DNA from: Candidatus Colwellbacteria bacterium
GTDB lineage: Bacteria > Patescibacteriota > Minisyncoccia > UBA6257 > Colwellbacteraceae
DNA: 64,000 nucleotides
Assembly: GCA_027448785.1 (NCBI GenBank)
Contig: DAIDMW010000001.1
Coordinates: 1,668-65,667, forward strand
Direction: 5' to 3'
The notes under the pieces were generated by a model that saw only the letters and a list, made by a program, of their open reading frames with translations, was not told the origin of the DNA and searched no databases. Numbering within the stretch: position 1 is the first letter of the stretch; each line of letters begins with the position of its first letter. This document shows, in pieces, positions 3,949-59,004 of this stretch. Position numbers and translations under genes: made by a program.

Positions 3949-4020
3949 GGCCTGGTAGCCAAGTGGTAAGGCGAAGGTCTGCAAAACCTTTATACGCGGG
4001 TTCGATTCCCGCCCAGGCCT
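3949..4020 (+). tRNA. tRNA-Cys (anticodon GCA)
   Basis: Acceptor stem GGCCTGG/CCAGGCC. Anticodon stem AAGGT/ACCTT with loop CTGCAAA. T-arm GCGGG-TTCGATT-CCCGC. Discriminator T. Confidence 0.85.
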
Positions 4021-4022
4021 CA

Positions 4023-15883: not shown

Positions 15884-15959
15884 ATTTTAGGTCATAAGAC
15901 ATGACTGCTCTTTTGTAAGTTAATAGTAAATGTAGAAACTTTTTAGTTGTTCCAGTCTA

Positions 15960-18474: not shown

Positions 18475-19032
18475 GTGAGTAGAGGATTTACGTTGATCGA
18501 GTTGTTGATAGTTATCGCTATCATCGGGATTCTTTCCGCGGCTGTGCTCCTGACCATTAATCCGGGGCAGCTTTTGGCGCAAGCAAGAGACTCGCGCCGC
18601 GTTGACGATCTCGCCAACTTGAATTCGGCCGTCAAGCTGTACTTAGCCGATTTCGCCACCACGACCTGGTCGGCGGCTTACAATTGTACCTCCGGCACCA
18701 CCGCTCCCGGAACGTCGACCGTCGGCGGATGCGCACAGAACCAAACGAAGACGACGGCTGGCGCCGGCTGGGTGCCGATCAATTTCGGGTTAATGACGAT
18801 CAATTCTCCGATCTCCGCGCTGCCGATCGATCCCAGTAACGGCGTTTCTTCCTGCGGCGGAGGCGAGCCGCCGAACGTCTGTTTGTACGCTTACCACTCC
18901 TCTTCGACGATCGGCTTGTACAAGCTCTACGCCAAAATGGAAAGTTCGCGCTACCAGAACAACCAGTCGGTCGGTGACGGTGGATTATACAACGCCTGGT
19001 ACGAGGTTGGCTCTAACTTATCCACACTTTAA
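18475..19032 (+). CDS. type IV pilin (class III signal, MSRG|FTLIELLIVIAIIGIL)
   Basis: Prepilin leader ending in G followed by FTLIE and a hydrophobic helix. GTG start. Confidence 0.8.
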   Translation: MSRGFTLIELLIVIAIIGILSAAVLLTINPGQLLAQARDSRRVDDLANLNSAVKLYLADFATTTWSAAYNCTSGTTAPGTSTVGGCAQNQTKTTAGAGWVPINFGLMTINSPISALPIDPSNGVSSCGGGEPPNVCLYAYHSSSTIGLYKLYAKMESSRYQNNQSVGDGGLYNAWYEVGSNLSTL

Positions 19033-19111
19033 TCTTGGCATAATTATCGGTGTTGCGGTAAAATAACGACAACTCAAAGGACGAGAGTCAAAGGTCAAAA
19101 AATACTCAACA

Positions 19112-19663
19112 ATGCCAAGCAATAAAGGATTTACTTTAATCGAGCTTCTGATCGTCATCGCCATCATCGGAATCCTGGCCGCGGCTGTGGTGTTAGTTCT
19201 TAACCCGGGACAGATTTTCGCCCAGGCTCGGGACTCCCAGCGCATCCAGGATATGTCGACGCTGAATAGCGCCATCAGCCAATGGCTGGCCGACGTCTCG
19301 ACGACCACCTGGAGCGCAGTATGGAACTGCACTTCCGGCACGGTTGCTCCGGGAACCGGAACCTGCACGACGGTAACCTCGCGCGCGGTCGACGGTACCG
19401 GCTGGGTGCCGATCAACTTCAACGCGGTTTCCAGCGGTTCGCCGCTCTCGGTTTTGCCGATGGATCCGTCGAATGGCAGTACTTGCACCAGCGGGCAAAC
19501 CCCAAACATCTGCATGTACTCCTACCACTCCAGCTCAACCTTCGGCCAATATAAGCTTTATGCCAACCTGGAGAGCTCCAAGTACCAGACCACTTACGGA
19601 GCCAACGACGGCGGCACGCTTTCCGGCTGGTACGAGGTCGGAACCAACTTAAGCGGACTCTAA
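19112..19663 (+). CDS. type IV pilin, tandem paralog (MPSNKG|FTLIELLIVIAIIGIL)
   Basis: Same N-terminal signature and shared internal blocks (TTWSA..NCTSGT..GWVPINF..LP.DPSNG) with the upstream pilin. Confidence 0.8.
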   Translation: MPSNKGFTLIELLIVIAIIGILAAAVVLVLNPGQIFAQARDSQRIQDMSTLNSAISQWLADVSTTTWSAVWNCTSGTVAPGTGTCTTVTSRAVDGTGWVPINFNAVSSGSPLSVLPMDPSNGSTCTSGQTPNICMYSYHSSSTFGQYKLYANLESSKYQTTYGANDGGTLSGWYEVGTNLSGL

Positions 19664-19684
19664 TAATCTTTGGAGCCTCGACCG

Positions 19685-19710
19685 AAAACTCCCCTAAGCG
19701 GGGAGTTTTT
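19685..19710 (+). terminator. rho-independent terminator after pilin genes
   Basis: aaaactcccc-taagc-ggggagttttt: 10-bp GC-containing stem followed by a T tract. Confidence 0.7.
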
Positions 19711-19724
19711 GATTAGAAGAGAAA

Positions 19725-19830
19725 AAAGCGTAAAGCGAAAAGCTTAAAGCGCAAAACTAAAAGCGCAAAATTTAAAAGAACCGGCGACTAACGGCCACTC
19801 GATGTTTTTCACTTTTAGCTTTGAGCTTCT
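19725..19830. repeat. intergenic repeat element E8
   Basis: aaaagcgtaaagcgaaaagcttaaagcgcaaaactaaaagcgcaaaat...ccggcgactaacggcc...ttttcacttttagctttgagc. Its right arm supplies the annotated ATG of the next ORF. Confidence 0.75.
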
Positions 19831-20476
19831 TTTTACTTCGCCGACCGCATTATTTGGTATATTATTGGTTATGATGTTGATCGATGCATTTGTTTTGACG
19901 CGTTTCCACTTTCTAGCGCTTCTGACCCTGATTTTTTTAGGAGTTTTTACCGCCCAGGTTCTTTATCGTTGCGGAAAAATAAAAAATACTAAAATCTTCC
20001 GCGCTTTTTTCTGGTTTTCACTAATCTTCCCCTTCCTTTACTACATTTACCTGACTATCGCCCAGTACTTTATGTGGAAAACCGAGGGTGGCTTAGGCAA
20101 GTTTTTACTGCCGCCGTATGTCGGTGCAAGTTATGTCATCGGCTACCACTTCATACGCTTTTACCTTTACTACCTCATCTCTGCGGCGGTCGGAACCTTG
20201 TTCCTGCTAGCCGCGGTCTATCTGAACAAAAAGTTCGGCCGGCGCTTTTTCGAGGATGAGGAGCCGTATCTCGGGGCCGGCGCCATATCTTTGGTCGGCT
20301 ACCCAGGATTTTTCTTCTACCTTGTTGCACTGTTTTCCAGTCAGTTGGTTTTAACCGCCGGGCGATATCTGCTTACCAGAAAAAGCGAGCGCGTTCCGTT
20401 TTATTACTTATGGTTGCCGGCCGGCGTATTTGTTATACTACTCATATATCATTACCGTTTGTTTTATTTTAGCTGA
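19802..20476 (+). CDS. polytopic membrane protein, possible short A24 prepilin peptidase (PilD-like)
   Basis: Multi-TM protein between the pilins and pilB. LIDAFV and GAGAISLVGY are loosely reminiscent of PilD Asp-containing motifs. The true start may be the MML.. Met near 19872, since the first 10 codons are repeat-derived. Confidence 0.3.
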   Translation: MFFTFSFELLFTSPTALFGILLVMMLIDAFVLTRFHFLALLTLIFLGVFTAQVLYRCGKIKNTKIFRAFFWFSLIFPFLYYIYLTIAQYFMWKTEGGLGKFLLPPYVGASYVIGYHFIRFYLYYLISAAVGTLFLLAAVYLNKKFGRRFFEDEEPYLGAGAISLVGYPGFFFYLVALFSSQLVLTAGRYLLTRKSERVPFYYLWLPAGVFVILLIYHYRLFYFS

Positions 20477-22185
20477 TGCTAAGAGTCCCCGAGGACAAGA
20501 TTAAAGAACTAGTGGTCGGCGAGGGTTTGATTACTCCCGCTGATTTCGACACCCTGCTAGCCGAGGCCAAGCGCTTGGGTCAGAGCATCGAGGATGCGCT
20601 CATCTCCCGCAATATCATCACCGAAAGCTACCTGAACAACTTCCTTTCCAAATATTTCAATATTCCTTTAGCCAACCTGACCGCCGAAAACATCAACCGC
20701 GACGTTTTAAAACTGTTGCCGGAAAGCGTCGCGCGCGAAAAACGCGTTGTCCTTTTCAACCAAGAAACTGACGGCACGCTGGACGCCGCTTTCGAGGATC
20801 CGAGCGACTTAGTAACACTGGAGTATCTGACGAGTTATCTGAAAGCGAAAATCCGGCCTTTTCTGGCTACTACCGACGATTTGAACAAAGGTTTCTCTCT
20901 TTACGGGTCGGCGGCCGCGGAAAACTATATTAAGCTGATCGAGGAAAATGTGCGCGCCTCCCTTTTGAGTAGAAGCCATGGAGAGGAGGCGGCCGGCGAG
21001 GTGCCGATAGTGGCCATCGTCGACAACATCCTTTCATACGGCTTGTCGCTGCGCGCCTCCGACATACACCTGGAAGTTCTGGAGGCCGAGGTCCTCGTCC
21101 GGTACCGCATCGACGGCATCCTGCACGAGATGTTCAAGGTGCCGAAGGAGGTTTTTCCGGCGATCGTCGCCCGCATCAAGCTCTTGGGCAGCCTAAAGAT
21201 CGACGAACACTACAAACCGCAGGACGGAAGGTTCCGCTACAAGATCGGCGAGGATGTAGTTGATGTCAGAATCTCGATTATTCCGACCTTCTACGGTGAG
21301 AAGATCGAGATGAGGTTGTTGCCGGCGACGACTAGGCCTCTTTCCTTTGCCGAACTTGGGATGATGGAGGATACCGCTAATCTCTTGACCGAGAATATCA
21401 AAAAAAGCTACGGCATGGTTCTGGTTTGCGGTCCGACCGGCTCCGGCAAGACCACGACCCTGTATTCGGTTATTAACGTTTTAAATCACCCCGAGGTGAA
21501 CATCGTCACCATCGAGGATCCGATCGAGTACAATATTAAATACATAAACCAAATTCAGGTCAACACCGCGGCCGGAATAACTTTCGCCGATGGGCTGCGC
21601 TCAATTCTGCGCCAAGACCCGAACATCATTATGGTCGGTGAGATGCGCGACGAGGAGACGGCGAGCATCGGCGTGCAGTCGGCTTTGACCGGACACTTGG
21701 TCTTGAGCTCGCTGCACACCAGCGACGCCCCGACCGCCGTTCCGCGGTTGATGGACATGAACGTCGAGCCTTATTTGGTGGCCGCGGTTTTGAACGCCGT
21801 TCTCGCCCAGCGTCTGGTCCGGAAAATCCATCTGGGCTGCATCGAGTCTTACGAACCGAGCGATCAGGAGATTAAAGCGATCCAGAGCCAAATCAAAGAG
21901 GCCGGGCTCGATCCGGAAAAATACCCGATTCCAAAACAGCTGTACCGCGGCAAGGGATGCGCCGCCGACGGTTTTACCGGATACTCCGGCAGAGTCGGCA
22001 TTTTTGAGCTGCTAAGCGTTTCAGAAAAAGTCCGCGAGCTTATCGTCAGTCCCAACTTCACTTTCGATAACCTGCGCGCACTGGCGAAACAGGAGGGAAT
22101 GGTCTCGATGTTCGAAGACGGACTGCGCAAGGCCGAGCTCGGCGTAACCACCATCGACGAGGTCCTGCGGGTGATCGGAGAATAA
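20476..22185 (+). CDS. pilB: type IV pilus assembly ATPase PilB/GspE family
   Basis: N-terminal GspII_E-like domain, Walker A VCGPTGSGKTTTLYSVIN, Asp/His boxes, and a tetracysteine-like C-terminal region. Confidence 0.85.
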   Translation: MLRVPEDKIKELVVGEGLITPADFDTLLAEAKRLGQSIEDALISRNIITESYLNNFLSKYFNIPLANLTAENINRDVLKLLPESVAREKRVVLFNQETDGTLDAAFEDPSDLVTLEYLTSYLKAKIRPFLATTDDLNKGFSLYGSAAAENYIKLIEENVRASLLSRSHGEEAAGEVPIVAIVDNILSYGLSLRASDIHLEVLEAEVLVRYRIDGILHEMFKVPKEVFPAIVARIKLLGSLKIDEHYKPQDGRFRYKIGEDVVDVRISIIPTFYGEKIEMRLLPATTRPLSFAELGMMEDTANLLTENIKKSYGMVLVCGPTGSGKTTTLYSVINVLNHPEVNIVTIEDPIEYNIKYINQIQVNTAAGITFADGLRSILRQDPNIIMVGEMRDEETASIGVQSALTGHLVLSSLHTSDAPTAVPRLMDMNVEPYLVAAVLNAVLAQRLVRKIHLGCIESYEPSDQEIKAIQSQIKEAGLDPEKYPIPKQLYRGKGCAADGFTGYSGRVGIFELLSVSEKVRELIVSPNFTFDNLRALAKQEGMVSMFEDGLRKAELGVTTIDEVLRVIGE

Positions 22186-22302
22186 AGTGCAAAACTTAAA
22201 GCGCAAAGTGTAAGGCGAAAGGCGCAAAATAACGGCGGGTCGCTAGTCGTCGGATCTTTTAAAGTTTGCGCCTTTAGTTTTGCGCTTTTATCTTTTCGCT
22301 TT
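22186..22302. repeat. intergenic repeat element E9
   Basis: agtgcaaaacttaaagcgcaaag...gtcgctagtcgtcggatc...gtttgcgcctttagttttgcgcttttatcttttcgc. Confidence 0.75.
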
Positions 22303-22373
22303 AAAATAAAAAGCAGAAGCCACTTAGGTTTTTCCAAAAACGTTATAAAAGGAAGGAAATTTTATTCAAACCA

Positions 22374-23585
22374 ATGCGTTTTCGCTATGTAGCATCCGAT
22401 CCCAACGGCAGGTTGATGGAAGGGTACGTCGAAGCCAAGAGCCCGGCGGAGGTTCTGGAGTGGATGGGCGGGCAAAACTGGAAGCCGATATCGCTCAAGG
22501 CGATCCGCCAGACCGAGACCCAGAAGTTTTTCGGCGGATTGCAGCAAGGAGGGATTACCATCGCCGACCAGGTTTTCCTCACTAAATATCTGGCGCTGAT
22601 GCTTAAAGTCGGCACAGACCTTTTTAAAGCTATCGACATTCTGGTGGAAGACTTTGACAAGCCGGCGGTCAAGTCGTTTCTTATGGAAGTGCGCGACGCC
22701 CTAAGTAAAGGGCAGCCGTTTTATACCTCTTTTTCGCGCTATCCCAAGTACTTTTCTCCAGTTTTCATCAATATGGTCAAGGCGGGGGAGAGCTCCGGCA
22801 ACCTGGAAAAAGTCTTCGGAGACCTGAGTGCCTCGCTGCAAAAGCAGCAGGAGATACGCGACAAGATCCGGGCGGCGCTGATCTATCCTGTCATATTGTT
22901 GATCATGGCTTCGGTCATCCTACTGGTTATGGTGACCTTCATCCTGCCGAGAATCGCCAGCACTTTCTTGAGCTCGGGAATCAACCCGCCGATCTTCACC
23001 AAAATCGTTTTCGGCGTTGGTCTGTTTATCGGCGGAAACATCGCGATTATCCTGCCTTTGATTATCGCGGCGGCCGTCGGTTTGTGGATTTTTTTTCGTA
23101 CCGCGGGCGGCAAAAAGTTCCTCAGTCAAACGCTTTCCCGCACTCCTGTTGTCAAAGACGTCGTGGCGAAAATGGCTCTGCAACGCTTTTCCGCGACTTT
23201 TGCTTCTCTACTGCGCTCCGGCCTGCCCATCCTTGACGCTTTGGAAATAACCGCCGGCGCCTCCGGCTCCACCGAGATGGAGGCGGCCTTGGACCGCATC
23301 GCCAGGGAGGGGGTGGCCAAGGGGCTAACGATCGGCGATTCCTTCCGCCGCGAGACCGTTTTCCCGAGAGTGGTGGTCAACTTGATAACCATCTCGGAAA
23401 AAGCAGGACACATGGAAAATATCCTGGACACGCTCTCCGACTTCTACGCCGCCGAGATCGACTCCTCCATCAAGATTCTAATGTCCTTCTTGGAGCCGGC
23501 ACTTCTGCTGATAATGGGTATCATGGTCGGCGGAATCGCCTTGTCGATCATCGTTCCGATCTACCAGCTAACCGCCCAATATTAA
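22374..23585 (+). CDS. pilC: type IV pilus platform protein PilC/GspF family
   Basis: Two GspF repeats, three TM segments, ~400 aa, directly downstream of pilB. Confidence 0.85.
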   Translation: MRFRYVASDPNGRLMEGYVEAKSPAEVLEWMGGQNWKPISLKAIRQTETQKFFGGLQQGGITIADQVFLTKYLALMLKVGTDLFKAIDILVEDFDKPAVKSFLMEVRDALSKGQPFYTSFSRYPKYFSPVFINMVKAGESSGNLEKVFGDLSASLQKQQEIRDKIRAALIYPVILLIMASVILLVMVTFILPRIASTFLSSGINPPIFTKIVFGVGLFIGGNIAIILPLIIAAAVGLWIFFRTAGGKKFLSQTLSRTPVVKDVVAKMALQRFSATFASLLRSGLPILDALEITAGASGSTEMEAALDRIAREGVAKGLTIGDSFRRETVFPRVVVNLITISEKAGHMENILDTLSDFYAAEIDSSIKILMSFLEPALLLIMGIMVGGIALSIIVPIYQLTAQY

Positions 23586-47855: not shown

Positions 47856-49566
47856 CTAAAGCGATCTCTCCTTCTTGTCCGCGGCGATAACTACGGAGGC
47901 TGACAATTTTGGCAGAGGCCTCTTTTTCACCAACGATTAAGACGTAAGGAGTCTTGGCCGTTTCGGCCGCGCGGATTCTCTTGCCGAGAGTTTCGGTTGC
48001 CGGAGAAACCTCGGCGCGAATCCCGTATTTCTTCAAAGTCTCGTTCACCGAGTAAGCGTACTTATTCTGCTTTTCGGTGACGGGAATAACCGTAGCCTGG
48101 ACGGGGGAGAGCCAGAGCGGGAAGGCGCCGGCAAAGTGTTCGATTAAGACTCCTAGGAATCTCTCTCGCGATCCGACCAGCGCGCTGTGAATCATGACTG
48201 GAGTGTATTTCTTGCCGTCGGCTCCGACATATTCCAAAGAAAACCTCTTCGGCATATTGAAGTCCAGCTGTATGGTGGAGAGCTGCCACTCCCTACCTAA
48301 GGAATCTCTTGCCATGAGGTCGAATTTTGGGCCATAGAAAGCGGCTTCGCCTGGAGCAGAGTAGAATTTAATCTTTTTCTTTTCCAAAAGCTCCTTCATT
48401 ATTTTCTGGGATTTCTTCCAAATCGCGTCGTCGCCCAGATATTTATTTTTATTCTTCTCATCGCGGAGAGAAAGGCGAACGGTGTAATCCATTTTGTAGG
48501 TTTTCATCACTTGGTTGATGCCAGAGAGTAGTTTGCTTAACTCGCCTTCAATCTGGTCCTCACGGCAGAAGCAGTGTCCGTCATCCTGAGAAAAGGCGCG
48601 GAGACGGGTTAGGCCATTCAGTTCGCCCGGCTTTTCATCGCGGTATAAGTTAGCAAAATCGGCTATTCTAACGGGCAGATCTTTGTAACTCCGGGTTTCC
48701 GAAGCGTAGATCTGGGTGTGCTGAGGGCAATTCATCGGCTTCAGGAAGTACTCCTCCTCGGTGTAGTTGGAGCGCACGTGGAACATATCTTCCTTGTACT
48801 TGTCATAGTGCCCCGAAGTTTTGAAGAGTTCGGCTTTGTTGATCTGCGGAGTATGCACTTCCTCGTAGCCGAGCTCGTTTCTAATCTCGTTGGAATATTC
48901 TTTTATTTTCTGGAGCATCAAGGCGCCTTTCGGCTTATAGAGCGGGAGCCCCGGGCCGACCAGATCGGAAAATACGAACAAACCCAACTCCTTTCCGAGT
49001 TTGCGGTGGTCTCTTTTCTCTGCCTCTTCGAGCATCTTGAGATACGCCTGGAGCTCTTTGGGAGTGGTAAAGGCCAGTCCGTAGATGCGAGTGAGCATCG
49101 GATTATTTTCGTCGCCACGCCAATATGCGCCGGCTGTGCTTTTCAAAGCGAATGATTCCGGATCGATTTCTTTGGTGTTTTTCACGTGACCGCCGCGGCA
49201 GAGATCTAAAAATATCTCTCCAGTGCGGTAAATGGTCAACGGTTTCTTTTCTTTTGTAAAATCGTTGATCAGCTCCAGTTTAAAAGGTTGATCTTTAAAT
49301 ATTTTCTTTGCCTGAGCGGGCGTAACTTTTTCTCCTTTGAAAGGAAGGTTGGCTTTGATAAGCGAACGCATCTCTTTTTCCAACTCCCTTAATTCGTTTT
49401 CCGCCAGCGGCCGGGGAAGTAGAAAGTCGTAGTAAAAACCGGCCTCGATGGTCGGACCGATTCCAAGCTTGGCCTTTGGAAATTTTTTCAGGACGCTCGC
49501 GGCCAACAGATGCGCCAGAGAATGGCGGATATTGTCTAAATGCTGATCTTGCTTATCTCGTTGCAT
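47809..49566 (-). CDS. thrS: threonyl-tRNA synthetase lacking N-terminal TGS domain
   Basis: HSLAHLLA editing-domain motif, class II motifs (HRKLGKELGLF, FRDE...GLTR), and C-terminal anticodon-binding domain. Confidence 0.85.
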   Translation of the reverse strand: MQRDKQDQHLDNIRHSLAHLLAASVLKKFPKAKLGIGPTIEAGFYYDFLLPRPLAENELRELEKEMRSLIKANLPFKGEKVTPAQAKKIFKDQPFKLELINDFTKEKKPLTIYRTGEIFLDLCRGGHVKNTKEIDPESFALKSTAGAYWRGDENNPMLTRIYGLAFTTPKELQAYLKMLEEAEKRDHRKLGKELGLFVFSDLVGPGLPLYKPKGALMLQKIKEYSNEIRNELGYEEVHTPQINKAELFKTSGHYDKYKEDMFHVRSNYTEEEYFLKPMNCPQHTQIYASETRSYKDLPVRIADFANLYRDEKPGELNGLTRLRAFSQDDGHCFCREDQIEGELSKLLSGINQVMKTYKMDYTVRLSLRDEKNKNKYLGDDAIWKKSQKIMKELLEKKKIKFYSAPGEAAFYGPKFDLMARDSLGREWQLSTIQLDFNMPKRFSLEYVGADGKKYTPVMIHSALVGSRERFLGVLIEHFAGAFPLWLSPVQATVIPVTEKQNKYAYSVNETLKKYGIRAEVSPATETLGKRIRAAETAKTPYVLIVGEKEASAKIVSLRSYRRGQEGEIALDELVSRLQKEIAKRS

Positions 49567-52500
49567 AGCAGTTTGGCGTCCCCGTTCTTTCTGGAAACCC
49601 GGCCGACAACGTCGACGACGTTGTTTTCTTGTATGATGCCTTGGTTCTTTTCGAGAACGCTGTTAAAAACCAATATTTCTATAGTATTGCTCAAGTCGTC
49701 TATTTTGGCAAAAACCATTGGCTCGCCCTTCTTGGTCATGACCCGCTGGACTTTGGTGATTACGCCGGCTATTCTGACCATCTTGGTGTCCTCCAGCTCG
49801 AGTACTGTCGAGATCGGCGTATATCGTTTGCCTTTGGAGGCGGCGCCGCGCAGGTACTCGACCAAAGGATGTTCAGTGAAATATACGCCCAGCAACTCTC
49901 TCTCCCAAGCCAGCCGCTCGGTTTTCGAGGCCGGCTGCATCGGCTCCTGCAGCTTGAAAGTCGGGGCGACGGCGCCGCCGAACAGCGTATCCTGCATTCC
50001 TTGCTGAACCTTCTTTGCTCCGCTCGCCGCCCTCAGAACCGCGTCCATGTTGAAAAGTATCTTCTGTCGCTCCACGCCCAGCGAATCCAAGGCGCCGGTT
50101 TTCGCCAACGCTTCCAAAGATTTCTTGTTAAGGTCGCGGTGACTGACGCGCATCATAAAATCGCTGAAACTCTGATAAGGACCGCCCATCATTCTTTCGT
50201 TAACGATGATCTCGGTGATGTTGGCGCCGAGGTTTTTGATGGTCGCCAAACCGTAGCGTATTCCCTGGTCTTCCGGGAAGAATTGCCCCAAACTCCTGTT
50301 GACGTCCGGCGGAAGGACTTTGATTCCCATCCGCTCTGCCTCGGCGGCCAGGAAGGTGATGCGCTCGATGTCGCCATTTGAGTGGTTCAAAAGCGCGGTC
50401 ATGAACTCTGTGGGGTAGTGCGTCTTCAGATAAGCGGTTTGATAGCTTATCAATCCGTAGCAAGCCGCGTGACTGCGGTTGAAGCCATAGCGGGCGAAAG
50501 GTGGAAACAACTCCCAAATTTTTTCCGCGGTTCTCTCGTCTATGCCGTTGGCAATCATTCCGTCAACGAGCTTCTTTTGCTGTTCGTCGAGGAGCGACTT
50601 TATTTTTTTTCCGATAGCTTTACGCAAGGTATCCGACTGCGCCAGAGAAAATCCCGCGAGGTCTCTCGCGATTCTCATCATTTGCTCCTGATAAACGCCG
50701 ACTCCGTAAGTCGATTTGAGTATCGGTTCCAACTTAGGATGGATGTATGAGATTTTTTCTTTTCCATGCTTGCGGTTGATGAAAGATGGGATAAGTTCGA
50801 TAGGTCCGGGTCGGTATAGAGCGCCTAAAGCTATTAAATCCTCCAAAACTGTCGGCTTAAGTTCCTTGATGTAACGCCTCATTCCGGCGGATTCGAACTG
50901 GAATATGCCGGTGGTTTCTCCGGTTTGCAGGAACTTGTAAGTGGCCGCGTCGTCAAGAGGAATTTCATAAATGTCTACGTCCTCGTCGTGTATGTTTTTT
51001 ATGAGCCTCAGCGTCTCTTCGATGACGGTCAGGTTTCGCAGACCTAATAAGTCCACTTTAAGCAATCCAAGATCCTCGACTCCGTGCATTTCTATTTGAG
51101 TGATGACGGAATTAGGGTCTTGCGGCGAGCGTTGTAGTGGTAAGTAGTTTACGAGCGGTTTGGCAGAAATAAGCGTTCCGCAAGCGTGGACCGAGGCGTG
51201 CCTCACCGTTCCCTCCAACTTCAAGGCGGCGGATAGCACTCTTCTGGCGTCCGGATCCTTCTCGTATCTCTCTTTCAATTCTGGTATCTCTTCTAGGTAC
51301 TTGCCTAACTTGGTGTTGGATTTATCGGTGTTTGGCTCGAAAGGAATCATTTTAGCCAGTTCGTCGCAGAAAGAGTAGGAGAGCCCTAAAGCGCGGCCGG
51401 CGTCCCTCACCGAAGCCCGTGCAGCCATGGTTCCAAAAGTGATGATTTGAGCCACTCTTTCGTTCCCATACTTATCCTTGAGGTACGCCAGCACTTCGTC
51501 GCGGCGGTAATCCGCGAAGTCGATGTCGATATCAGGCATGGAGATTCTTTCCGGGTTAAGAAATCTCTCAAAAAGCAGATCATATTGCATCGGGTTGATT
51601 CCTGTTATCCCCAAGATATACGAAACAAAACTGCCCGCGGCTGAGCCTCTTCCTGGGCCTACCACGATTCCGTGGTCTTTCGCCCAGTTCACGTAGTCCT
51701 GGACTATGAGAAAGTAATCGGAAAACCCTGTTTTCTCTATCACGCTAACCTCGTATTCCAGCCTTTGCCTTTCTTCTTCGGTTGGATTGGGGAATTTTTG
51801 TTCAAACCTTTCTCGGATCAACTGCTTCAAATATTCCATCGAAGGTATGTCGTTCGGAGTGTCGAACTCGGGCAGGATGGTCGTCCCGAGCTGGAACTCG
51901 AATTGGCATTTCTCGGCTACCTTCAGAGTGTTCTCCAGCGCTTCGGGAAAATCGGAAAGGTTGGCGGCCATCTCCTCGGCGTCGACGAAGGATGCGTCGA
52001 AATCCTGGAAAGAGAGCCGGTCCTCGTCCTCGAGGCGGTTATTGGTTTGGATAGCTAAAAGTATCTCGTGGATCGGCTGGTCTTCCTTTAATACATAGTG
52101 CGAGTCCTGGGTGGCGACCAGAGGAATGCCGTACTTTTCCGAAAGTTCCTTCATCGCCCGGTGCAGGTCGGGGGAGTGTGGCTGAATTTCTAAATAATAA
52201 TCGTCGCCGAAAAGGTTGTGGTAAAACTCGACCACCTCTTCGGCCTCCTTGCGGTTGCCGGCCCGTAAATTTCTGGCCAGCTCTCCGGAAAAGCAGCCCG
52301 ACAAGCAGACAACCCCCTCGTGGTGCTTTTCCAAAAGTTCGCGGTCGATTCTTGGTTTGTAGTAGAAGCCCTCGAGGTGCGATCGGGTCACTAATTCGCA
52401 CAGATTATGGTATCCCTCCTCGTTTTTAGCCAAAAGTGTAAGGTGGTAGCGGGTCATGTCCTCGCGCCCGCCGCGGGAGAGGCGTGATCCCTTGGCGACA

Positions 52501-52751
52501 TAAACCTCGACGCCGATGATTGGCTTGATGCCGGCCTTCTTGGCCTTCTCGAAAAACTCCACCGACCCGTACATATTGCCGTGGTCGGTCAGCGCCAGCG
52601 CCTCCATTCCCAGCTCCTTCGCCCTGTTTACCAGTCCGTCGATCTTCGATAAACCGTCTAATAGGGAGTAGTGCGAGTGGGTGTGGAGATGGATAAATTT
52701 CGGCATGGCTTTTACGGCCTCATTATAAACTGAAGTTTTATTCTTCTCCAA
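49536..52751 (-). CDS. dnaE: DNA polymerase III alpha subunit
   Basis: PHP domain (FIHLHTHSHYSLLDG) and polymerase core, 1071 aa. Confidence 0.9.
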   Translation of the reverse strand: MEKNKTSVYNEAVKAMPKFIHLHTHSHYSLLDGLSKIDGLVNRAKELGMEALALTDHGNMYGSVEFFEKAKKAGIKPIIGVEVYVAKGSRLSRGGREDMTRYHLTLLAKNEEGYHNLCELVTRSHLEGFYYKPRIDRELLEKHHEGVVCLSGCFSGELARNLRAGNRKEAEEVVEFYHNLFGDDYYLEIQPHSPDLHRAMKELSEKYGIPLVATQDSHYVLKEDQPIHEILLAIQTNNRLEDEDRLSFQDFDASFVDAEEMAANLSDFPEALENTLKVAEKCQFEFQLGTTILPEFDTPNDIPSMEYLKQLIRERFEQKFPNPTEEERQRLEYEVSVIEKTGFSDYFLIVQDYVNWAKDHGIVVGPGRGSAAGSFVSYILGITGINPMQYDLLFERFLNPERISMPDIDIDFADYRRDEVLAYLKDKYGNERVAQIITFGTMAARASVRDAGRALGLSYSFCDELAKMIPFEPNTDKSNTKLGKYLEEIPELKERYEKDPDARRVLSAALKLEGTVRHASVHACGTLISAKPLVNYLPLQRSPQDPNSVITQIEMHGVEDLGLLKVDLLGLRNLTVIEETLRLIKNIHDEDVDIYEIPLDDAATYKFLQTGETTGIFQFESAGMRRYIKELKPTVLEDLIALGALYRPGPIELIPSFINRKHGKEKISYIHPKLEPILKSTYGVGVYQEQMMRIARDLAGFSLAQSDTLRKAIGKKIKSLLDEQQKKLVDGMIANGIDERTAEKIWELFPPFARYGFNRSHAACYGLISYQTAYLKTHYPTEFMTALLNHSNGDIERITFLAAEAERMGIKVLPPDVNRSLGQFFPEDQGIRYGLATIKNLGANITEIIVNERMMGGPYQSFSDFMMRVSHRDLNKKSLEALAKTGALDSLGVERQKILFNMDAVLRAASGAKKVQQGMQDTLFGGAVAPTFKLQEPMQPASKTERLAWERELLGVYFTEHPLVEYLRGAASKGKRYTPISTVLELEDTKMVRIAGVITKVQRVMTKKGEPMVFAKIDDLSNTIEILVFNSVLEKNQGIIQENNVVDVVGRVSRKNGDAKLLCNEISKISI

Positions 52752-52786: not shown

Positions 52787-52818
52787 CAAAGTGCAATAGG
52801 GCGTTTAGCTTTATTTCG

Positions 52819-53643
52819 ATGAACCAGCTAAGCAAATACCGGAGCGCCCTTGCTTATTTAATCTTACTTTTAATAAGCCTGGCCACGCTCCTCTCCGCAA
52901 CGAACATCGTCCGCGGGTTCACGCATCCCACCGAACAGCCGCCTTCAGGTCAGCCGGGACCTATTCCCGTCTCTGTCGGTGGTACCTCAGCTACCACCAC
53001 CGCGCAGGCCAGAATTAACTTGGGCGCGGCGGCTTCTGGCGCCAACACAGACATCGTTTCCTTATCGCCGACCGGCAACCTAATTCTTTCTCCCAGCGGT
53101 TACGTCGGCATCAAAAACCCATTCCCGACCTATAATTTGGACGTTGGTAGCGGCGGGGCCTACACCGCCCGTATCGGTTCGGCCTCTAGCGACACCTTGG
53201 TTGTCGGCGGAGGCGCGGGAAAACTGACTGTTGGAACGCTTGACCCGGTCTTCAACATCTCCGGAACGCAATTCGCCACTTATGCGCCGGGAATGATCGG
53301 CGTCAAAGAGGAATTGAACGGAGTTGCTGATCTTTCCTGTAAAGACTATCAATGTTCTTACACTATAGACTTTTCCTCTGCGTCTTACGGCAGCCGGGAG
53401 TGGCTTTTTAGAAAAATTACCGACTTCGGAGCGGAGTGGAATGGTCTAATTGTTTCGCTCACGCCTGGATTCCAAGGTCAGGTCTGGTATAAAAAAGATT
53501 ACGTTACCGGAAGGCTCGTTATTTTTGGCTCGCAAGGCGGAGAAGTTTCTTACCAGCTATTAGCTCCTCGCTTCGACTGGCAGTTGTGGTCGGATGAGCC
53601 CAGCGGGTTACAACCAAACGAGGGACTAAGAGTAATTGAATAA
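52819..53643 (+). CDS. secreted protein with phage tail-fibre-like N-terminal domain (module 1, gene A)
   Basis: Signal peptide, then TTTAQARINLGAAASGANTDIVSLSP. This resembles the TAAQAR.NLGL...GAN.DITSL motif of tailed-phage tail fibres. Confidence 0.5.
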   Translation: MNQLSKYRSALAYLILLLISLATLLSATNIVRGFTHPTEQPPSGQPGPIPVSVGGTSATTTAQARINLGAAASGANTDIVSLSPTGNLILSPSGYVGIKNPFPTYNLDVGSGGAYTARIGSASSDTLVVGGGAGKLTVGTLDPVFNISGTQFATYAPGMIGVKEELNGVADLSCKDYQCSYTIDFSSASYGSREWLFRKITDFGAEWNGLIVSLTPGFQGQVWYKKDYVTGRLVIFGSQGGEVSYQLLAPRFDWQLWSDEPSGLQPNEGLRVIE

Positions 53644-55801
53644 GCTTCTTTCATTAATAGCGAATGCTTTTCGCGCGCGCCGTTTTTTGGTGGCTTTCAT
53701 TGCGTGGTCGCTTCTGCCGTTGCCAATAGGTCAGGCCAGCAGCTTCTACTCCTGGTCGTCATTCCCTTTTTTGCAGGAGTTTAATAGCACCGAGGAGTTT
53801 GTCTCAAACGTCTGGCACGGGATTTTTTCCCCTTCAGAACCGAGCACTTTCATTTCAACGTCAGAGTTTTTGATTAGCCCTGTTCCGCTTTCTACTCCTG
53901 CTTTGCCTCGCGGCAGCGATTCTTTTTCGGTAATCCAAGGAGGCAAAGTCTGGCCGAAAATAATTAGAGCGGACATTAATCCAGTCGATGCACATATTAA
54001 CGACGTCCAACACTTATCGGTGACGCTCGAGTCTCCGGTTGAAATCAAATCGGTGCAGGCGATAATCTACACCGATCATAGACAGGTCGAGGTTGATTTG
54101 GCCGAGTCCTCCGCACCGGAGTCTGTTAATCAACCGAGTCGATACGCCTTGAATAACAGGAATGGATTAAGGCTAAAAAGCGGAGAAGATTTAGGTGTTA
54201 AAAGCGCGGCGGCTGAGGAGTTGTTAAAAACCTTTTATTTTTCCGGATCCTGGAAGGTTGAAGATACGCATAATGCTTCGTACCAAACTAAGCTTGTCGC
54301 CACCGATGTTCTGGGCCGTAGCAGCTCGGTCGCCCTAGCCTGGTCCGACGCCTGCGGCATTCCCAACGACGGAAGCTATACTTTGTCTTCCAACTGCACC
54401 ATCTCCTCGGTGGACGGCGTGGATAACGGAGATCTAGTTATAGCAACCGGAACGACACTAACCCTAAACTCGACTTTCGCTTACAATCCGGGGAAAACGG
54501 TTACGCTCAACGGAGCGGTGGCGATCGGCAGTGGAGGACAATTTAAAAAAACCTACTTATGGATGATTGATGGAGATGCCGACGGATATGCGTCTAATTC
54601 CATCCAATATGCGCAGGATTCCGCGCCGGCCGGCGGTCGGAGGAGATACATGCTCGTAACCTCGCAATATGATTGCAATGACGTCAACGCCTCCATTTAT
54701 CCGGGCGTAATAACATCTTCCGGATCCTGCGGCTCCTGTACTTACTCGGCGACCTGTGCCAATGTTGGTAGCGGTTCCTACTCATACACTTATTGCTCTA
54801 GCAACGGAAGTTATACTAGCGCCTCAGGGTCGTGTACCTGCACTCGTGATACTACCGGAGCCGTCTGCAGTAGTTGGTCGTCCTGTTCCGGTTCTTATCC
54901 GAGCTGCACCGGCACACAAACCGCTTCTGTTTGCTCAGCGGGAACGTGTAGTGGCACCATATCGCAAAGCTGCAACCTGGCCAATGGCACGTTTTGCAGC
55001 GGATGGTCTGCGTGCTCAGGCACGATTCCCTCGGGGTCGTGTAGCGCTTCCGGAACACAAGCAGCTTCAACTTGCAGTAACGGATCTTGTAGTGGCTCGA
55101 CTTCTCAAAGCTGTGTCCTAACTGCTACTAATGGCACGCTGTGCGGCAGTTATGGGTCTTGTTCCGGTTCTGTGGCCTACCCGAATTGTTCTGCGTCCGG
55201 AATACAAACCGCACCGACTTGCAACAGCGGATCCTGCAGCGGCTCGACCTCTAGAAGTTGCGTTGTTTATGCCTCGTTCGGCACGAGCTGTGGGTCGACC
55301 TCTTACGGAACTTGCGGCTCCTGCACATATTCTTCTACTTGCACCAATATTGGAAGCGGAACACAAAGCTACACAAGTTATGCATGCAACGGCTCCGGAT
55401 CATGTATCTCCGGCTCCGGCACGCAAAGCTGCTCTTGCACCAGAAACACCAGTGGCACAGCTTGCGGAAGTTATAGCGTCAGTGCTTGTAGCGGAAGCAG
55501 TTATTGTTCGACCGCCAATTACGTTTGTAGCAGCGGCTCGTGTTCGTTTAGTTCATATTCCGGGTGCACCGCCTGCACTTGCGGCTGCTCTTGCGGCACA
55601 AGTAGCTGCGGCTGCAGTACTGTTTATAATTGTAGTCGTTGCAGCGACACTTATGCTTGCCAATACGCTAGTTTTAACAGCTGTTCCAGCGCCTGCACTA
55701 GTCCGTTTAACGTCAGCTACTCCTTTAGCAGCGGGTGTGCCTCTCTTTGTGGTAGCGGTTATTGCAGCAGCGCTTGCAATAGCTGTGGACCATGTCCGTA
55801 G
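53636..55801 (+). CDS. large secreted Cys/Ser/Gly/Thr-rich protein with MopE-like DxDxDG...DCND putative metal-binding motif (module 1, gene B)
   Basis: Signal peptide, conserved core (LAWSDACGIPNDGSY...YLWMIDGDADGY...DCNDVNASIYPG), then ~370 aa of C/S/G/T low-complexity with ~35-aa internal repeats. TTG start overlaps the upstream stop. Confidence 0.5.
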   Translation: MNKLLSLIANAFRARRFLVAFIAWSLLPLPIGQASSFYSWSSFPFLQEFNSTEEFVSNVWHGIFSPSEPSTFISTSEFLISPVPLSTPALPRGSDSFSVIQGGKVWPKIIRADINPVDAHINDVQHLSVTLESPVEIKSVQAIIYTDHRQVEVDLAESSAPESVNQPSRYALNNRNGLRLKSGEDLGVKSAAAEELLKTFYFSGSWKVEDTHNASYQTKLVATDVLGRSSSVALAWSDACGIPNDGSYTLSSNCTISSVDGVDNGDLVIATGTTLTLNSTFAYNPGKTVTLNGAVAIGSGGQFKKTYLWMIDGDADGYASNSIQYAQDSAPAGGRRRYMLVTSQYDCNDVNASIYPGVITSSGSCGSCTYSATCANVGSGSYSYTYCSSNGSYTSASGSCTCTRDTTGAVCSSWSSCSGSYPSCTGTQTASVCSAGTCSGTISQSCNLANGTFCSGWSACSGTIPSGSCSASGTQAASTCSNGSCSGSTSQSCVLTATNGTLCGSYGSCSGSVAYPNCSASGIQTAPTCNSGSCSGSTSRSCVVYASFGTSCGSTSYGTCGSCTYSSTCTNIGSGTQSYTSYACNGSGSCISGSGTQSCSCTRNTSGTACGSYSVSACSGSSYCSTANYVCSSGSCSFSSYSGCTACTCGCSCGTSSCGCSTVYNCSRCSDTYACQYASFNSCSSACTSPFNVSYSFSSGCASLCGSGYCSSACNSCGPCP

Positions 55802-55877
55802 AGTTATCCACTATTTACACAGCTACGCGCATTTTATATCCTTAAATCATAAGGTTGTTTTTCTTATCGCTTAAGAA

Positions 55878-56597
55878 ATGAAAAACAAGTCGATAGGCTA
55901 TTTGTTAACCTCGCTTTTGACGGCGGTTTTCGCCGCTCTTCTTTTTAATACGGCTTACGGGTTTAATTCCCCAGCATCCACTCCGCCGAACGGTAATCCT
56001 GGGCCGATTCCCGTTGCCGATGGTGGAACTAACGCTACAACTACCGCCCAGGCTTTAGCCGATCTTGGCGCGGCGGCTTCCGGAGCCAATACCGACATTA
56101 CTTCGCTGTCTCCGTCTAACGGCAGCGCACTGCAAATCGGCAGCGCCGGCTTGGTGGTTGGCGGCGGAACGGGAAAGATAACCGTTGGAACGATCGATCC
56201 AATATTTCGCATCGATGGAAAACAGTATGCAACATATGCTCCCGACATGACCGGGGTTAAAGAAGAGACCACCGGAGTTTTAAACCTAAGCTGCAAAAAC
56301 GGGGTTTGTTCGAATGCGATTGATTTTTCTAACCTGCCTAATGGCAGTAATTTATGGATTTTCAGGCGCGCCAGCAATTTTGGAACCAACTGGGAAGGTT
56401 TGACAGTCAATCTAACGCCGGGATTCGACGGCCGCGTCTGGTATGAAAAGAATTATATGCAAGATAAGTTGGTCGTCCTCGGTTCATCCTCGGGGGAAGT
56501 CTCTTACAGCTTATCTGCTCCGCGTTTCGATGCTTCGCTTTGGCCAAACCAACCGAAAGGGTTAACGCCGGGAGAGGGATTATTTATACCAAACTGA
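55878..56597 (+). CDS. secreted tail-fibre-like N-domain protein (module 2, gene A; paralog of 52819..53643)
   Basis: NATTTAQALADLGAAASGANTDITSLSP and a conserved C-terminal half (TYAPDMTGVKEE...LTPGFDGRVWYEKNY). Confidence 0.5.
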   Translation: MKNKSIGYLLTSLLTAVFAALLFNTAYGFNSPASTPPNGNPGPIPVADGGTNATTTAQALADLGAAASGANTDITSLSPSNGSALQIGSAGLVVGGGTGKITVGTIDPIFRIDGKQYATYAPDMTGVKEETTGVLNLSCKNGVCSNAIDFSNLPNGSNLWIFRRASNFGTNWEGLTVNLTPGFDGRVWYEKNYMQDKLVVLGSSSGEVSYSLSAPRFDASLWPNQPKGLTPGEGLFIPN

Positions 56598-56612
56598 GTT
56601 TAGTAAACCTCT

Positions 56613-58352
56613 ATGCATAAAGATATCTTTAGTTTTCGACGATACTTTACCGCCTTGGCTTTAAGTTTTTCTTTATTAGGTTTACCTTTTAACTTTACCT
56701 CTCAGCCAGCATTACAAGCAGCCGAGAGCGGAAATGTTTTTAGTGGCGTAGAATCTTTTTTTAATAATGTTTGGCAAGGCTTGTTTCCAAAGCCGGCGGT
56801 CCAGGAAACAACAGCCGTCGTCCAACCGGCTCCGCCTCCGCCGATGCCGACAGGGAAGAATAGTCCGCTCTTGCCGCTTTCCCCGGCCAAGCCCACCCTG
56901 CCGCAGGGAGACCAAACCTACCGAATCGTACAAGGAGTGAATGTTTGGCCAAAAATACTAACAGCTCAGATCAATCCCGTTGATGTCGAGGTCGGTAACA
57001 CCCAGACTTTCAACTTAACTATCGAGACGCCGGTTGCCATCTCCGCGGTTGAGGCGATCATCCAGACCGACCACGGATCGGAACATTTGATGCTTAAGAA
57101 GACCAGCGCGGCCGCCACAGCGACAGTTTCATCACCTGATTTATATCTAAACCAGAAAAATCAAATCGTTCTCGGCCAGCCCAGCGGAGGATTGTTACCG
57201 GTGGCTGAAGCAAGCCAGCAGTTGTACACCGAAGACTTCGCCGGCTCGTGGCAAGTCAAGGACACGCACAATAGCACCTATCACACGACATTTCTCGCCA
57301 CCGACGTTCTGGGTCGCAGCAGCTCGGTTACTCTAGCCTGGTCAGATGCTTGCGGGATTCCCAATGGCGGAAGTTACAATCTTTCTTCCAACTGCACCAT
57401 TTCATCGGTGGACGGCGTGGATAACGGCAGCTTTACCGTCGCTTCCGGATATACGCTAACTCTCGATTCAACTTTTGCTTTCAATCCCGGACAGAATATC
57501 ACGGTCAACGGGAGTATAGCTTTCGGGAGTGGAGGGCAGATTGAGAAGACTTATCTTTGGATGATCGACTCCGATGCAGACGGCTATGCCGCTAACTCGA
57601 CGGAATATGCTCAAGCGACAGCGCCGGCCGGAGGCCGAAGAAGGTATTTGCTGGTGACCGGCGAGTATGATTGCAACGATTCCAATGCTTCTATTTATCC
57701 AGGCGTAGTAACGTCGGTTGGCGCTTGCGGGTCTTGTAGCTACTCCTCGAGTTGCACGAATTCCGGCAGCGGAACCGACTCTTACACAGAGTGTACCGCA
57801 AGCGGAGCATATCAGACTTACAGCGGATCTTGCTCTTGTTCGAGAAACACCAATGGGGTGTCGTGCGGATCTAGTTGCGGTGTTTGGGGTTCGTGTGTTG
57901 CCAGTGGTTCTAGTGGAAGCGCGTATTGTAATGGTGTGGAAAGTCAAACTTGCACCAGTTACGCCTGCTCTAGTGGCAGTTGTGTTGCCAGCAGTAACTA
58001 CACCAACACCCAGTCGTGCGGAGCGGTTAACAACGGTTCGTCTTGCGAACCATCAACCACGGCCTGTTCCGGATCTAGTGCCGTCTATACATACGTTCAC
58101 GTTTGTAGTAGCGGATCGTGCGTGCAAAACACGGTTGGACCAACAACTTGCACTTGTGGATGCAGCAACGGAAGTTGTACGCCGGTTTATCCTTGTGGTC
58201 GTTGTAGTAATAATGTTGCTTGTTCATATGCAACATTTGACTCTTGCAATTCATCTTGCAGTAGCCCGTTCAATATAAGCTACTCGCAAAACAACGGTTG
58301 CACCGGGTTATGCGGCGGAAAGGGTTGCTGTTCTGGCGCCTGCTGCCCATAA
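56613..58352 (+). CDS. large secreted Cys-rich MopE-like protein (module 2, gene B; paralog of 53636..55801)
   Basis: Shares VWPKI..INPVD, LAWSDACGIPNGGSY, YLWMIDSDADGYAANS..DCNDSNASIYPG and a C-terminal Cys-rich tail ending SPFNISYS...CCP. Confidence 0.5.
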   Translation: MHKDIFSFRRYFTALALSFSLLGLPFNFTSQPALQAAESGNVFSGVESFFNNVWQGLFPKPAVQETTAVVQPAPPPPMPTGKNSPLLPLSPAKPTLPQGDQTYRIVQGVNVWPKILTAQINPVDVEVGNTQTFNLTIETPVAISAVEAIIQTDHGSEHLMLKKTSAAATATVSSPDLYLNQKNQIVLGQPSGGLLPVAEASQQLYTEDFAGSWQVKDTHNSTYHTTFLATDVLGRSSSVTLAWSDACGIPNGGSYNLSSNCTISSVDGVDNGSFTVASGYTLTLDSTFAFNPGQNITVNGSIAFGSGGQIEKTYLWMIDSDADGYAANSTEYAQATAPAGGRRRYLLVTGEYDCNDSNASIYPGVVTSVGACGSCSYSSSCTNSGSGTDSYTECTASGAYQTYSGSCSCSRNTNGVSCGSSCGVWGSCVASGSSGSAYCNGVESQTCTSYACSSGSCVASSNYTNTQSCGAVNNGSSCEPSTTACSGSSAVYTYVHVCSSGSCVQNTVGPTTCTCGCSNGSCTPVYPCGRCSNNVACSYATFDSCNSSCSSPFNISYSQNNGCTGLCGGKGCCSGACCP

Positions 58353-58359
58353 TATTAGC

Positions 58360-59004
58360 GTGCGAAAAATAATCGGCATCGACGAGGTTGGAAGAGGAGC
58401 GTTGGCCGGACCGGTGGTGGTTGCGGCCGTGATGATTCCCGAAAAGTATTTTCCACGCCCACCGAAAAGTTTAAAGCTGCCGCCGCTTCGCGATTCGAAA
58501 AAATTAACCAAGCGCGGCCGGGAAGCGTGGTCGGAGTATTTAAAAACCGATCCGCGGATCGAATGGCGTTTGGCGCGCGTTTATCCGGAAAAAATCGACA
58601 AACTAAACATCTCTCGCGCCGCCAATCTGGCTGCCACCAACGCCTTAAAACGTCTCCTGCAAAATATCAACTATCGGAACGATCGTTCCGATAGTTGTCT
58701 GGTAAAAGTGTTTTTAGACGGAGGATTGTATGTTTCCGAAGGAAAAATTGCGAACTTCCGCGCGAGACGAAGAAAATTAACCGTTAAAACCGTAATTAAG
58801 GGCGACGAGAAATACACTTCCGTAAAACTAGCCTCGATAATCGCCAAAGTTCACCGCGATCACTACCTAATGAAGTTAAAAAACAGATATCCACACTTTA
58901 GCTTCGACGTTCACAAGGGTTACGGAACAAAAAAACACATCGAAGAAATAAAAAAATTCGGAGCTAGCGATGTTCATCGCAAAAATTTCTTGAAAAACCT
59001 TTGA
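58360..59004 (+). CDS. rnhB: ribonuclease HII
   Basis: IGIDEVGRGALAGPVVVAAV catalytic N-terminus. GTG start, TGA stop. Confidence 0.85.
   Translation: MRKIIGIDEVGRGALAGPVVVAAVMIPEKYFPRPPKSLKLPPLRDSKKLTKRGREAWSEYLKTDPRIEWRLARVYPEKIDKLNISRAANLAATNALKRLLQNINYRNDRSDSCLVKVFLDGGLYVSEGKIANFRARRRKLTVKTVIKGDEKYTSVKLASIIAKVHRDHYLMKLKNRYPHFSFDVHKGYGTKKHIEEIKKFGASDVHRKNFLKNL

Follow-up and report, generated by a model that had tools for sequence, protein, structure and literature searches.

The window analysed here, a stretch of 64,000 nucleotides from the Candidatus Colwellbacteria contig DAIDMW010000001.1, contains at positions 52819-58352 two tandem copies of a two-gene module, in which a gene for a short tail-fibre-like protein (A) is followed by a gene for a larger partner protein (B). 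The A-then-B pairing is real and conserved across Patescibacteria, and the C-terminal domain of A (A C-domain) and the conserved core of B (B core) are two undescribed domain families, unnamed in Pfam, in NCBIfam and in the literature searched. With a probability of about one half we consider the pair to be a two-component surface module in which, by analogy with the phage proteins gp37/gp38, the A C-domain would dock B and the variable region of B would likely be the binding end. The module would belong with the cellular surface fibres made of phage-fibre parts, here with a downstream partner.

Two tandem cassettes and a conserved gene pair

The listing of open reading frames (ORFs) of the window places four ORFs on the same strand, which form the cassettes A1-B1 and A2-B2:

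52819-53643, + strand: A1, 274 amino acids, short tail-fibre-like surface protein as predicted from sequence
53636-55801, + strand: B1, 721 amino acids, TTG start, partner protein of A1
55878-56597, + strand: A2, 239 amino acids, paralog of A1 without the capping-loop unit of about 30 amino acids
56613-58352, + strand: B2, 579 amino acids, paralog of B1

The tandemly duplicated two-gene module described in an earlier note on this DNA is thus borne out. A1 and A2 are 51% identical (E 6e-80), and B1 and B2 47% (E 1e-139). These similarities are far beyond chance, and the two cassettes are old paralogous copies. The identity between the paralogs amounts to 58% in the A C-domain, 60% in the B core and, counted over aligned positions only, 58% in the Cys-rich tail of B, the two tails differing mainly in repeat number and little in sequence. 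All four proteins have been called as genes in several public assemblies, where they are annotated as "hypothetical protein", and their public matches derive exclusively from metagenome-assembled genomes (MAGs) of Patescibacteria.

The stop codon of A1 and the TTG start of B1 overlap by 8 nucleotides, with the sequence GAGGGA about 11 nucleotides upstream of the TTG, and a gap of 15 nucleotides separates A2 from B2. This spacing fits translational coupling, B probably being co-transcribed with A and coupled to it. The TTG at 53636 is not chosen universally: some public calls of B1 orthologs (P0253, P0258; 703 versus 721 amino acids in B1) begin 18 codons downstream, and the later start would drop the charged n-region of the B1 signal. 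A promoter scan of the locus returned hits at shuffle level, and terminator-like hits fell inside coding sequence.

The earlier note had proposed its own refutation test, namely whether homologs of A and B fail to co-occur in other genomes. According to two surveys the pairing is kept elsewhere. Anchored on B, a survey of GTDB species representatives yielded 35 loci, 28 of them assessable, in 15/28 of which the ORF directly upstream, on the same strand, has the A C-domain at its end; such an ORF lies within 10 kb in 21/28. Anchored on A, a survey of 80 metagenome loci (about 56 assessable) detected the B core downstream in 46, adjacent to A in 33 and at a distance of 1.6-4.7 kb in 13; there was no room downstream in 10 loci, and the B core was missing from 24 further loci, of which 8 offered more than 5 kb downstream and 16 offered 5 kb or less. 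The syntenic relative L001 carries the same double cassette. Several of the loci come from MAGs labelled as non-members of the candidate phyla radiation (CPR), for which binning errors are possible. The CPR literature searches retrieved no published description of the A-B pair, in agreement with the earlier note, which had not recognised the pairing as a described system.

The synteny is kept across very divergent lineages in which the proteins share 30-50% identity. This argues against the view that A and B are secreted proteins with separate functions that have no more in common than their operon, and against the module being a prophage or tailocin remnant. The phage tail-fibre motifs in A would agree with such a remnant, and the interaction between A and B is so far a prediction. 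However, the cassettes lie among housekeeping genes (dnaE, thrS, miaA, gatB, rnhB and an ABC transporter), with the divergently transcribed dnaE (49536-52751) on one side and the gene for RNase HII (58360-59004) on the other; searches of IMG/VR and INPHARED returned no relative of B and none of the A C-domain; and all four genes are under purifying selection, as judged from the ratio of nonsynonymous to synonymous substitution rates (dN/dS) against L001. The module is chromosomal and not phage-borne, and we regard independence or a phage remnant as very unlikely.

In a subgroup of loci a gene for a secreted protein with PKD and PD40 domains (a TolB-like beta-propeller) sits between A and B (L059 3078-4412, L067 9034-10347, L096 2312-3625, L111 9197-10654, L055 2560-5167). 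In another subgroup a divergent beta-propeller gene with a Por_Secre_tail-like C-terminus lies directly upstream of B (L019 8291-9742, - strand; L041 8491-9945, - strand).

Architecture of the two proteins

The segments of the four proteins referred to below are as follows:

A1, amino acids 44-117, + strand: tail-fibre motif, match to the phrog_11393 profile
A1, one copy, + strand: capping-loop-like unit GYVGIKNPFPTYNLDV, absent from A2
A1, amino acids 125-274 (53191-53640), + strand: A C-domain, conserved
A2, amino acids 90-239 (56145-56594), + strand: A C-domain, conserved
B1, amino acids 86-357 (53891-54706), + strand: conserved core
B1, amino acids 357-721 (54704-55798), + strand: modular Cys-rich tail
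B2, amino acids 94-366 (56892-57710), + strand: conserved core
B2, amino acids ~319-365, + strand: DxDxDGY...DCNDxNxxxYPG motif
B2, amino acids 366-579 (57708-58349), + strand: Cys-rich tail

The motifs quoted in the earlier note are present, and its description of A as tail-fibre-like holds. In A1 and A2 the signal is followed by a short Pro-rich motif and then by the tail-fibre motif, which matches phrog_11393 "tail fiber protein" with E 1.5e-7 and 2.7e-8, respectively, the match covering only about 70 amino acids. The AlphaFold2 (AF2) model of A2 consists of an N-terminal helix (amino acids 4-28), a short helix over the TTAQALADLGAAA motif, an unconfident linker and a C-terminal beta-sandwich (amino acids 110-216) with a predicted local distance difference test score (pLDDT) above 90.

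Homologs of A retain chiefly the C-terminal ~140 amino acids. A search of the A C-domain profile against 1.84 billion representatives revealed at least 1,224 clusters at 50% identity (750 at E<=1e-30), across which the domain is 45-58% identical; it forms nearly always the extreme C-terminus, in proteins of 200-3,495 amino acids. It contains 12 invariant residues including an Asp-Pro pair (D107-P108 in A2). Most carriers are fibres of the tail-fibre-like kind; type IV prepilins are few among them. Long A relatives match phrog_9942 and phrog_18345, up to E 8e-34, as well as lectin and carbohydrate-binding module domains. Most relatives open with a hydrophobic segment followed by motifs of the type A|(W/F)T(N/E/G)PS..PP.G, an N-terminus that may act as an anchor or else be cleaved as a Sec signal. 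Canonical prepilins (RGFTLMELL) form a minority, GFTLxEL signals being present in L002, L003, L006, P0135, P0148, P0156, P0175 and P0205; the N_methyl family PF07963 scores 22 bits in the first three of these against a cut-off of 21.2. The prepilin motif G|F-T-L-x-E is absent from A1, A2, B1 and B2, and none of the four has a Pfam or NCBIfam match above cut-off.

Hydrophobic N-terminal segments predicted to serve for export or anchoring occur in B as well as in A, as the earlier note had proposed for both proteins. One B relative (P0096) has a canonical prepilin N-terminus. A twin-arginine signal was considered for B (RARRF, FRRYF) and rejected, the motif being kept in only 4 of 37 family members. 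The AF2 model of B2 is confident for amino acids 100-345, which are predicted to fold into an immunoglobulin (Ig)-like sandwich followed by a short beta-helix. B homologs share residues ~90-365, beyond which their C-termini are completely different. A search of the PDB with sequence profiles of B returned nothing meaningful, and B had no match among the PHROG profiles. The opening strand motifs of the two domains are similar (GKITVGTIDPxYxIxG in A, PKIxxAxIDPxDVxVGD in B; A2 amino acids 100-120, ~56175-56237; B2 amino acids 114-134, ~56952-57014), the profile comparison being not significant; homology between the A C-domain and B was rejected at an hhalign probability of 0.9%.

The tail of B is modular and not amorphous. 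It opens with a unit of about 50 amino acids, of which B1 has two copies and B2 has one; the clearest repeat is a unit of 49 amino acids whose 6 Cys are spaced 6-9-11-5-8-10 and of which B1 contains about three copies, in place of the ~35-residue repeats proposed earlier; and a C-terminal module with SPFN(V/I)SYS is kept in both paralogs, as are the Cys-spacing modules. Several wordings of the earlier note require correction. The tail of B1 (366 amino acids) has the proposed length of 300-370 residues, whereas that of B2 reaches only 217; the composition described as "almost pure" Cys/Ser/Gly/Thr was measured at 62-68%, with 15% Cys; and "giant" overstates proteins of 580-720 amino acids. A Pfam search with the tails alone found no match at E<=10 and hence no support for a Cys repeat of the thrombospondin type or of any other named family.

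The strong compositional bias of the tails, their AF2 confidence (pLDDT ~30) and the long ORFs in other frames over the same DNA might suggest spurious low-complexity extensions of the ORFs. Against the syntenic relative L001, however, the tails are 92-97% identical with a dN/dS of 0.18 in B1 and 0.02 in B2, and the Cys-spacing and SPFN(V/I)SYS modules are common to both paralogs. Among close public variants the variable columns make up 3.3% of the tail versus 6.3% of the core in B1 and 11% versus 14% in B2 (8 and 7 near-identical variants, 15 close relatives in all), the tail being the least variable region of B. The low dN/dS and the small number of variable columns lead us to reject, at this timescale, both a spurious origin, which is effectively refuted, and the earlier suggestion of a diversifying system whose paralogs had diverged mostly in the tails. 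A search for template repeats like those of diversity-generating retroelements returned only self-matches of the paralogs within the window. ORFs in other frames or on the other strand cover the tail DNA at 54756-55874 and 57718-58278 (e.g. 55131-55874, 247 amino acids); they are by-products of the biased composition and not genes.

The comparison with L001 over 52800-58400 also revealed an uneven pattern. Cassette 1 is 96-98% identical at the nucleotide level (dS 0.05-0.08), the flanking dnaE and the downstream genes are 82-90% identical, and cassette 2 is 71-86% identical (dS 0.6-2.3). This mosaic suggests that cassette 1 has recently recombined or been transferred between lineages, or that cassette 2 has been replaced.

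Relation to phage fibres, adhesive fibres and pili

In the T-even phages (gp37/gp38 of the T2/S16 type, long tail fibre tip and adhesin), in Stf/Tfa and in the R-pyocin pair PA0620/PA0621 a fibre gene is immediately followed by the gene for its partner. The A-B module resembles these pairs in the gene order, in its conserved fibre tip and in a partner with a conserved N-terminal and a variable C-terminal part, and the fold of the A C-domain weakly resembles distal domains of pyocins or tailspikes. It differs from them in its cellular context and in that B, which lacks any sequence relationship to the phage partners and showed no fold similarity to known fibre chaperones or adhesins, is much larger, predicted to be Sec-exported and disulfide-rich.

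Phage Tfa, gp38 of T4 and PA0621 act on tail fibres as chaperones. B might likewise be an assembly factor of A, an extracytoplasmic chaperone or trimerisation factor that acts on the A C-domain and may leave the mature fibre. The gene order is the classic one of tail fibre and chaperone, A and B are paired one-to-one, also in both copies described here, and a conserved B core faces a conserved tip of A. B, however, matches no PHROG, carries an export or anchor signal of its own, so that it would act outside the cytoplasm, and with 400-790 amino acids and elaborate, variable but constrained C-terminal domains exceeds what the known fibre chaperones need. A role as assembly factor therefore appears rather unlikely.

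A close cellular parallel are the mosaic adhesive trimer (MAT) fibres of Bdellovibrio bacteriovorus (Caulton et al. 2024, PMC10769870). The A-family profile matches the MAT structures 8ond, 8ojn and 8ol4 (E 4e-6 to 0.01, the best match being 8ond, Bd2133, with E 4e-6) via GNVGIGTxxP capping-loop repeats, of which A1 has one unit and A2 none. MAT and A proteins alike are chromosomally encoded, signal-peptide-bearing, phage-tail-fibre-like surface fibres of mosaic architecture and variable length, those of A being predicted, and a trimeric beta-helix stalk with capping-loop repeats is possible for A; the MATs belong to a bacterium that lives on other bacteria. However, MATs conserve a beta-rich N-terminal domain of ~130 amino acids right after the signal peptide and have variable or S74 C-terminal tips (PMC10769870), whereas A conserves its C-terminal domain, which is not S74, and is followed by a dedicated partner gene. 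No S74 match was found in A with Pfam, and no other part of the A family is as well conserved as the C-domain.

The resemblance to type IV pilus tip complexes (PilVWX-PilY1) lies in some A relatives and one B relative that are prepilins next to pilM/B/T. In L002, L003 and L006, whose A proteins are prepilins, the genes pilM, pilB, pilT, pilC and a pilin gene follow directly downstream of the A-B pair. In Saccharibacteria TM7x the large proteins PilX1 and PilX2 have been proposed as adhesins (PMC12206443); their signals are non-canonical, and their C-terminal domains are beta-jelly-rolls or beta-propellers. Their likeness to the module is one of description. Beta-propeller genes are inserted in some of the loci between A and B. 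A1 and A2 differ from the pilus components in lacking the prepilin motif, and they are encoded about 30 kb from the type IV pilus genes of the window (18475-23585, + strand), which are given here as context and not as part of the module:

18475-19032 and 19112-19663, + strand: two tandem canonical pilins, GFTLIELL (GFTLIELLIVIAIIGIL)
19802-20476: polytopic membrane protein of 224 amino acids without Pfam hit, encoded where one might look for a prepilin peptidase
20476-22185, + strand: PilB-type ATPase
22374-23585, + strand: PilC-type platform protein

The window furthermore contains a complete bacterial 16S rRNA gene (15959-17536, + strand) and no 23S match, the rRNA genes being apparently unlinked, as well as a single tRNA-Cys (3949-4021, + strand).

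The earlier note had called B MopE-like. Each B core contains one DxDxDGY...DCNDxNxxxYPG unit reminiscent of MopE/PF11617, whereas the rest of B is unrelated; PF11617, with a cut-off of 27 bits, gave a single match of 13 residues in B2 that scored 16.9 bits, and none in B1, so that the label could not be upheld.

The A C-domain could, as another alternative, be a C-terminal sorting or anchoring domain like that of type IX secretion system (T9SS) substrates, with B as its envelope receptor or processing partner and the other end of the fibre as the functional tip. Several features would agree with this: the conserved beta-sandwich forms the very C-terminal end of large secreted proteins of highly diverse kinds, the N-termini of A in many cases look like cleavable signal peptides, many B relatives have N-terminal membrane helices, and beta-propeller/Por_Secre_tail genes lie next to some loci. 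The sorting domain Por_Secre_tail (PF18962), however, had no match in A1/A2 at E<=1 and was found only in the neighbouring beta-propeller genes, nor did A match any other Pfam sorting domain. Moreover, sorting systems employ one machinery for many substrates, while here nearly each A has its own B, and a prepilin-type A anchored by its N-terminus would hold the C-domain distally. A sorting function seems unlikely. On the features tested, the module lies outside the MopE, S74-MAT and T9SS C-terminal domain families, and A1/A2 lie outside the type IV pilins. Ranked by our confidence, the alternatives to a docking complex run from the assembly factor through the sorting domain and the co-operonic proteins or phage remnant to the artefactual tails.

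A candidate attachment device of ultrasmall symbionts

In the docking complex that we favour, A would be an exported or membrane-anchored stalk of phage-tail-fibre-type elements, very short here and about 3,500 amino acids long in relatives, that ends in the highly conserved beta-sandwich of ~140 amino acids as docking platform for the B core. B would be a second exported protein with a conserved Ig-like and beta-helix core and a lineage-variable C-terminal region, here a disulfide-rich modular array. The stalk would carry B at its end, as would a type IV pilus in those cases in which A is a prepilin, and the variable region of B would contact the target, most plausibly the surface of a host cell. 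A conserved A C-domain and B core, a variable stalk and B C-terminus and one-to-one synteny are expected of such a docking or surface complex. Since the C-domain must be distal in a prepilin-type A, B would be placed at the far end, which favours B as the displayed, specificity-bearing component. We infer the physical interaction, its orientation and the role in adhesion or host recognition from these features, and consider it plausible that the module is a host-attachment device.

Several observations weigh against this. Many A N-termini resemble cleavable Sec signals (e.g. VRA|WTNPS), so that the orientation could be the reverse, and the N-terminal helices of many B relatives look uncleaved, so that B may anchor itself. 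About 15-25% of family members have no partner nearby, and a search of 250 family members turned up no protein in which A and B are fused. The structural matches of B are generic Ig/E-set folds only. Furthermore, the tail with 15% Cys is limited to the closest ~7 B relatives, and the claims made for it do not generalise.

Genes of the B family were also detected on contigs of MAGs labelled as DPANN archaea, namely in L022 (840-2579) and L032 (3-845 and 6754-8817) and additionally in L012 and L016. L032 also carries an A C-domain. L022 and L032, assigned to Pacearchaeota and Nanoarchaeota, are syntenic with each other, and their neighbouring genes include a YGR210-like GTPase and Kae1, which we take to be of archaeal type. 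In P0099, a relative of B, the signal resembles the archaeal class III type (KG|LSEVV). The family thus probably occurs in DPANN archaea too, and sharing across domains among ultrasmall episymbionts is possible. A widespread, interchangeable "tip cassette" carried by fibre stalks or pilins, shared by CPR and DPANN, with B bearing the lineage-specific host-recognition surface and the cassette as a principal determinant of attachment, is a more tentative extension of the docking model that we would not yet expect to hold in full.

To our knowledge, type IV pili apart, little is understood of how CPR bacteria locate their hosts and stay attached to them. The module is abundant, conserved and surface-directed, and brings together stalks of the tail-fibre-like type, pilins and a partner protein that varies. 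It offers concrete candidates for host recognition, and its carriers include MAGs labelled Saccharibacteria (L005 and L007). It extends to another phylum, and to another architecture, the idea derived from the Bdellovibrio MATs that cellular organisms living on other cells make new use of parts of phage fibres. If true, the tip cassette would be one of the main factors, as yet without a name, that decide host attachment and specificity in CPR and DPANN.

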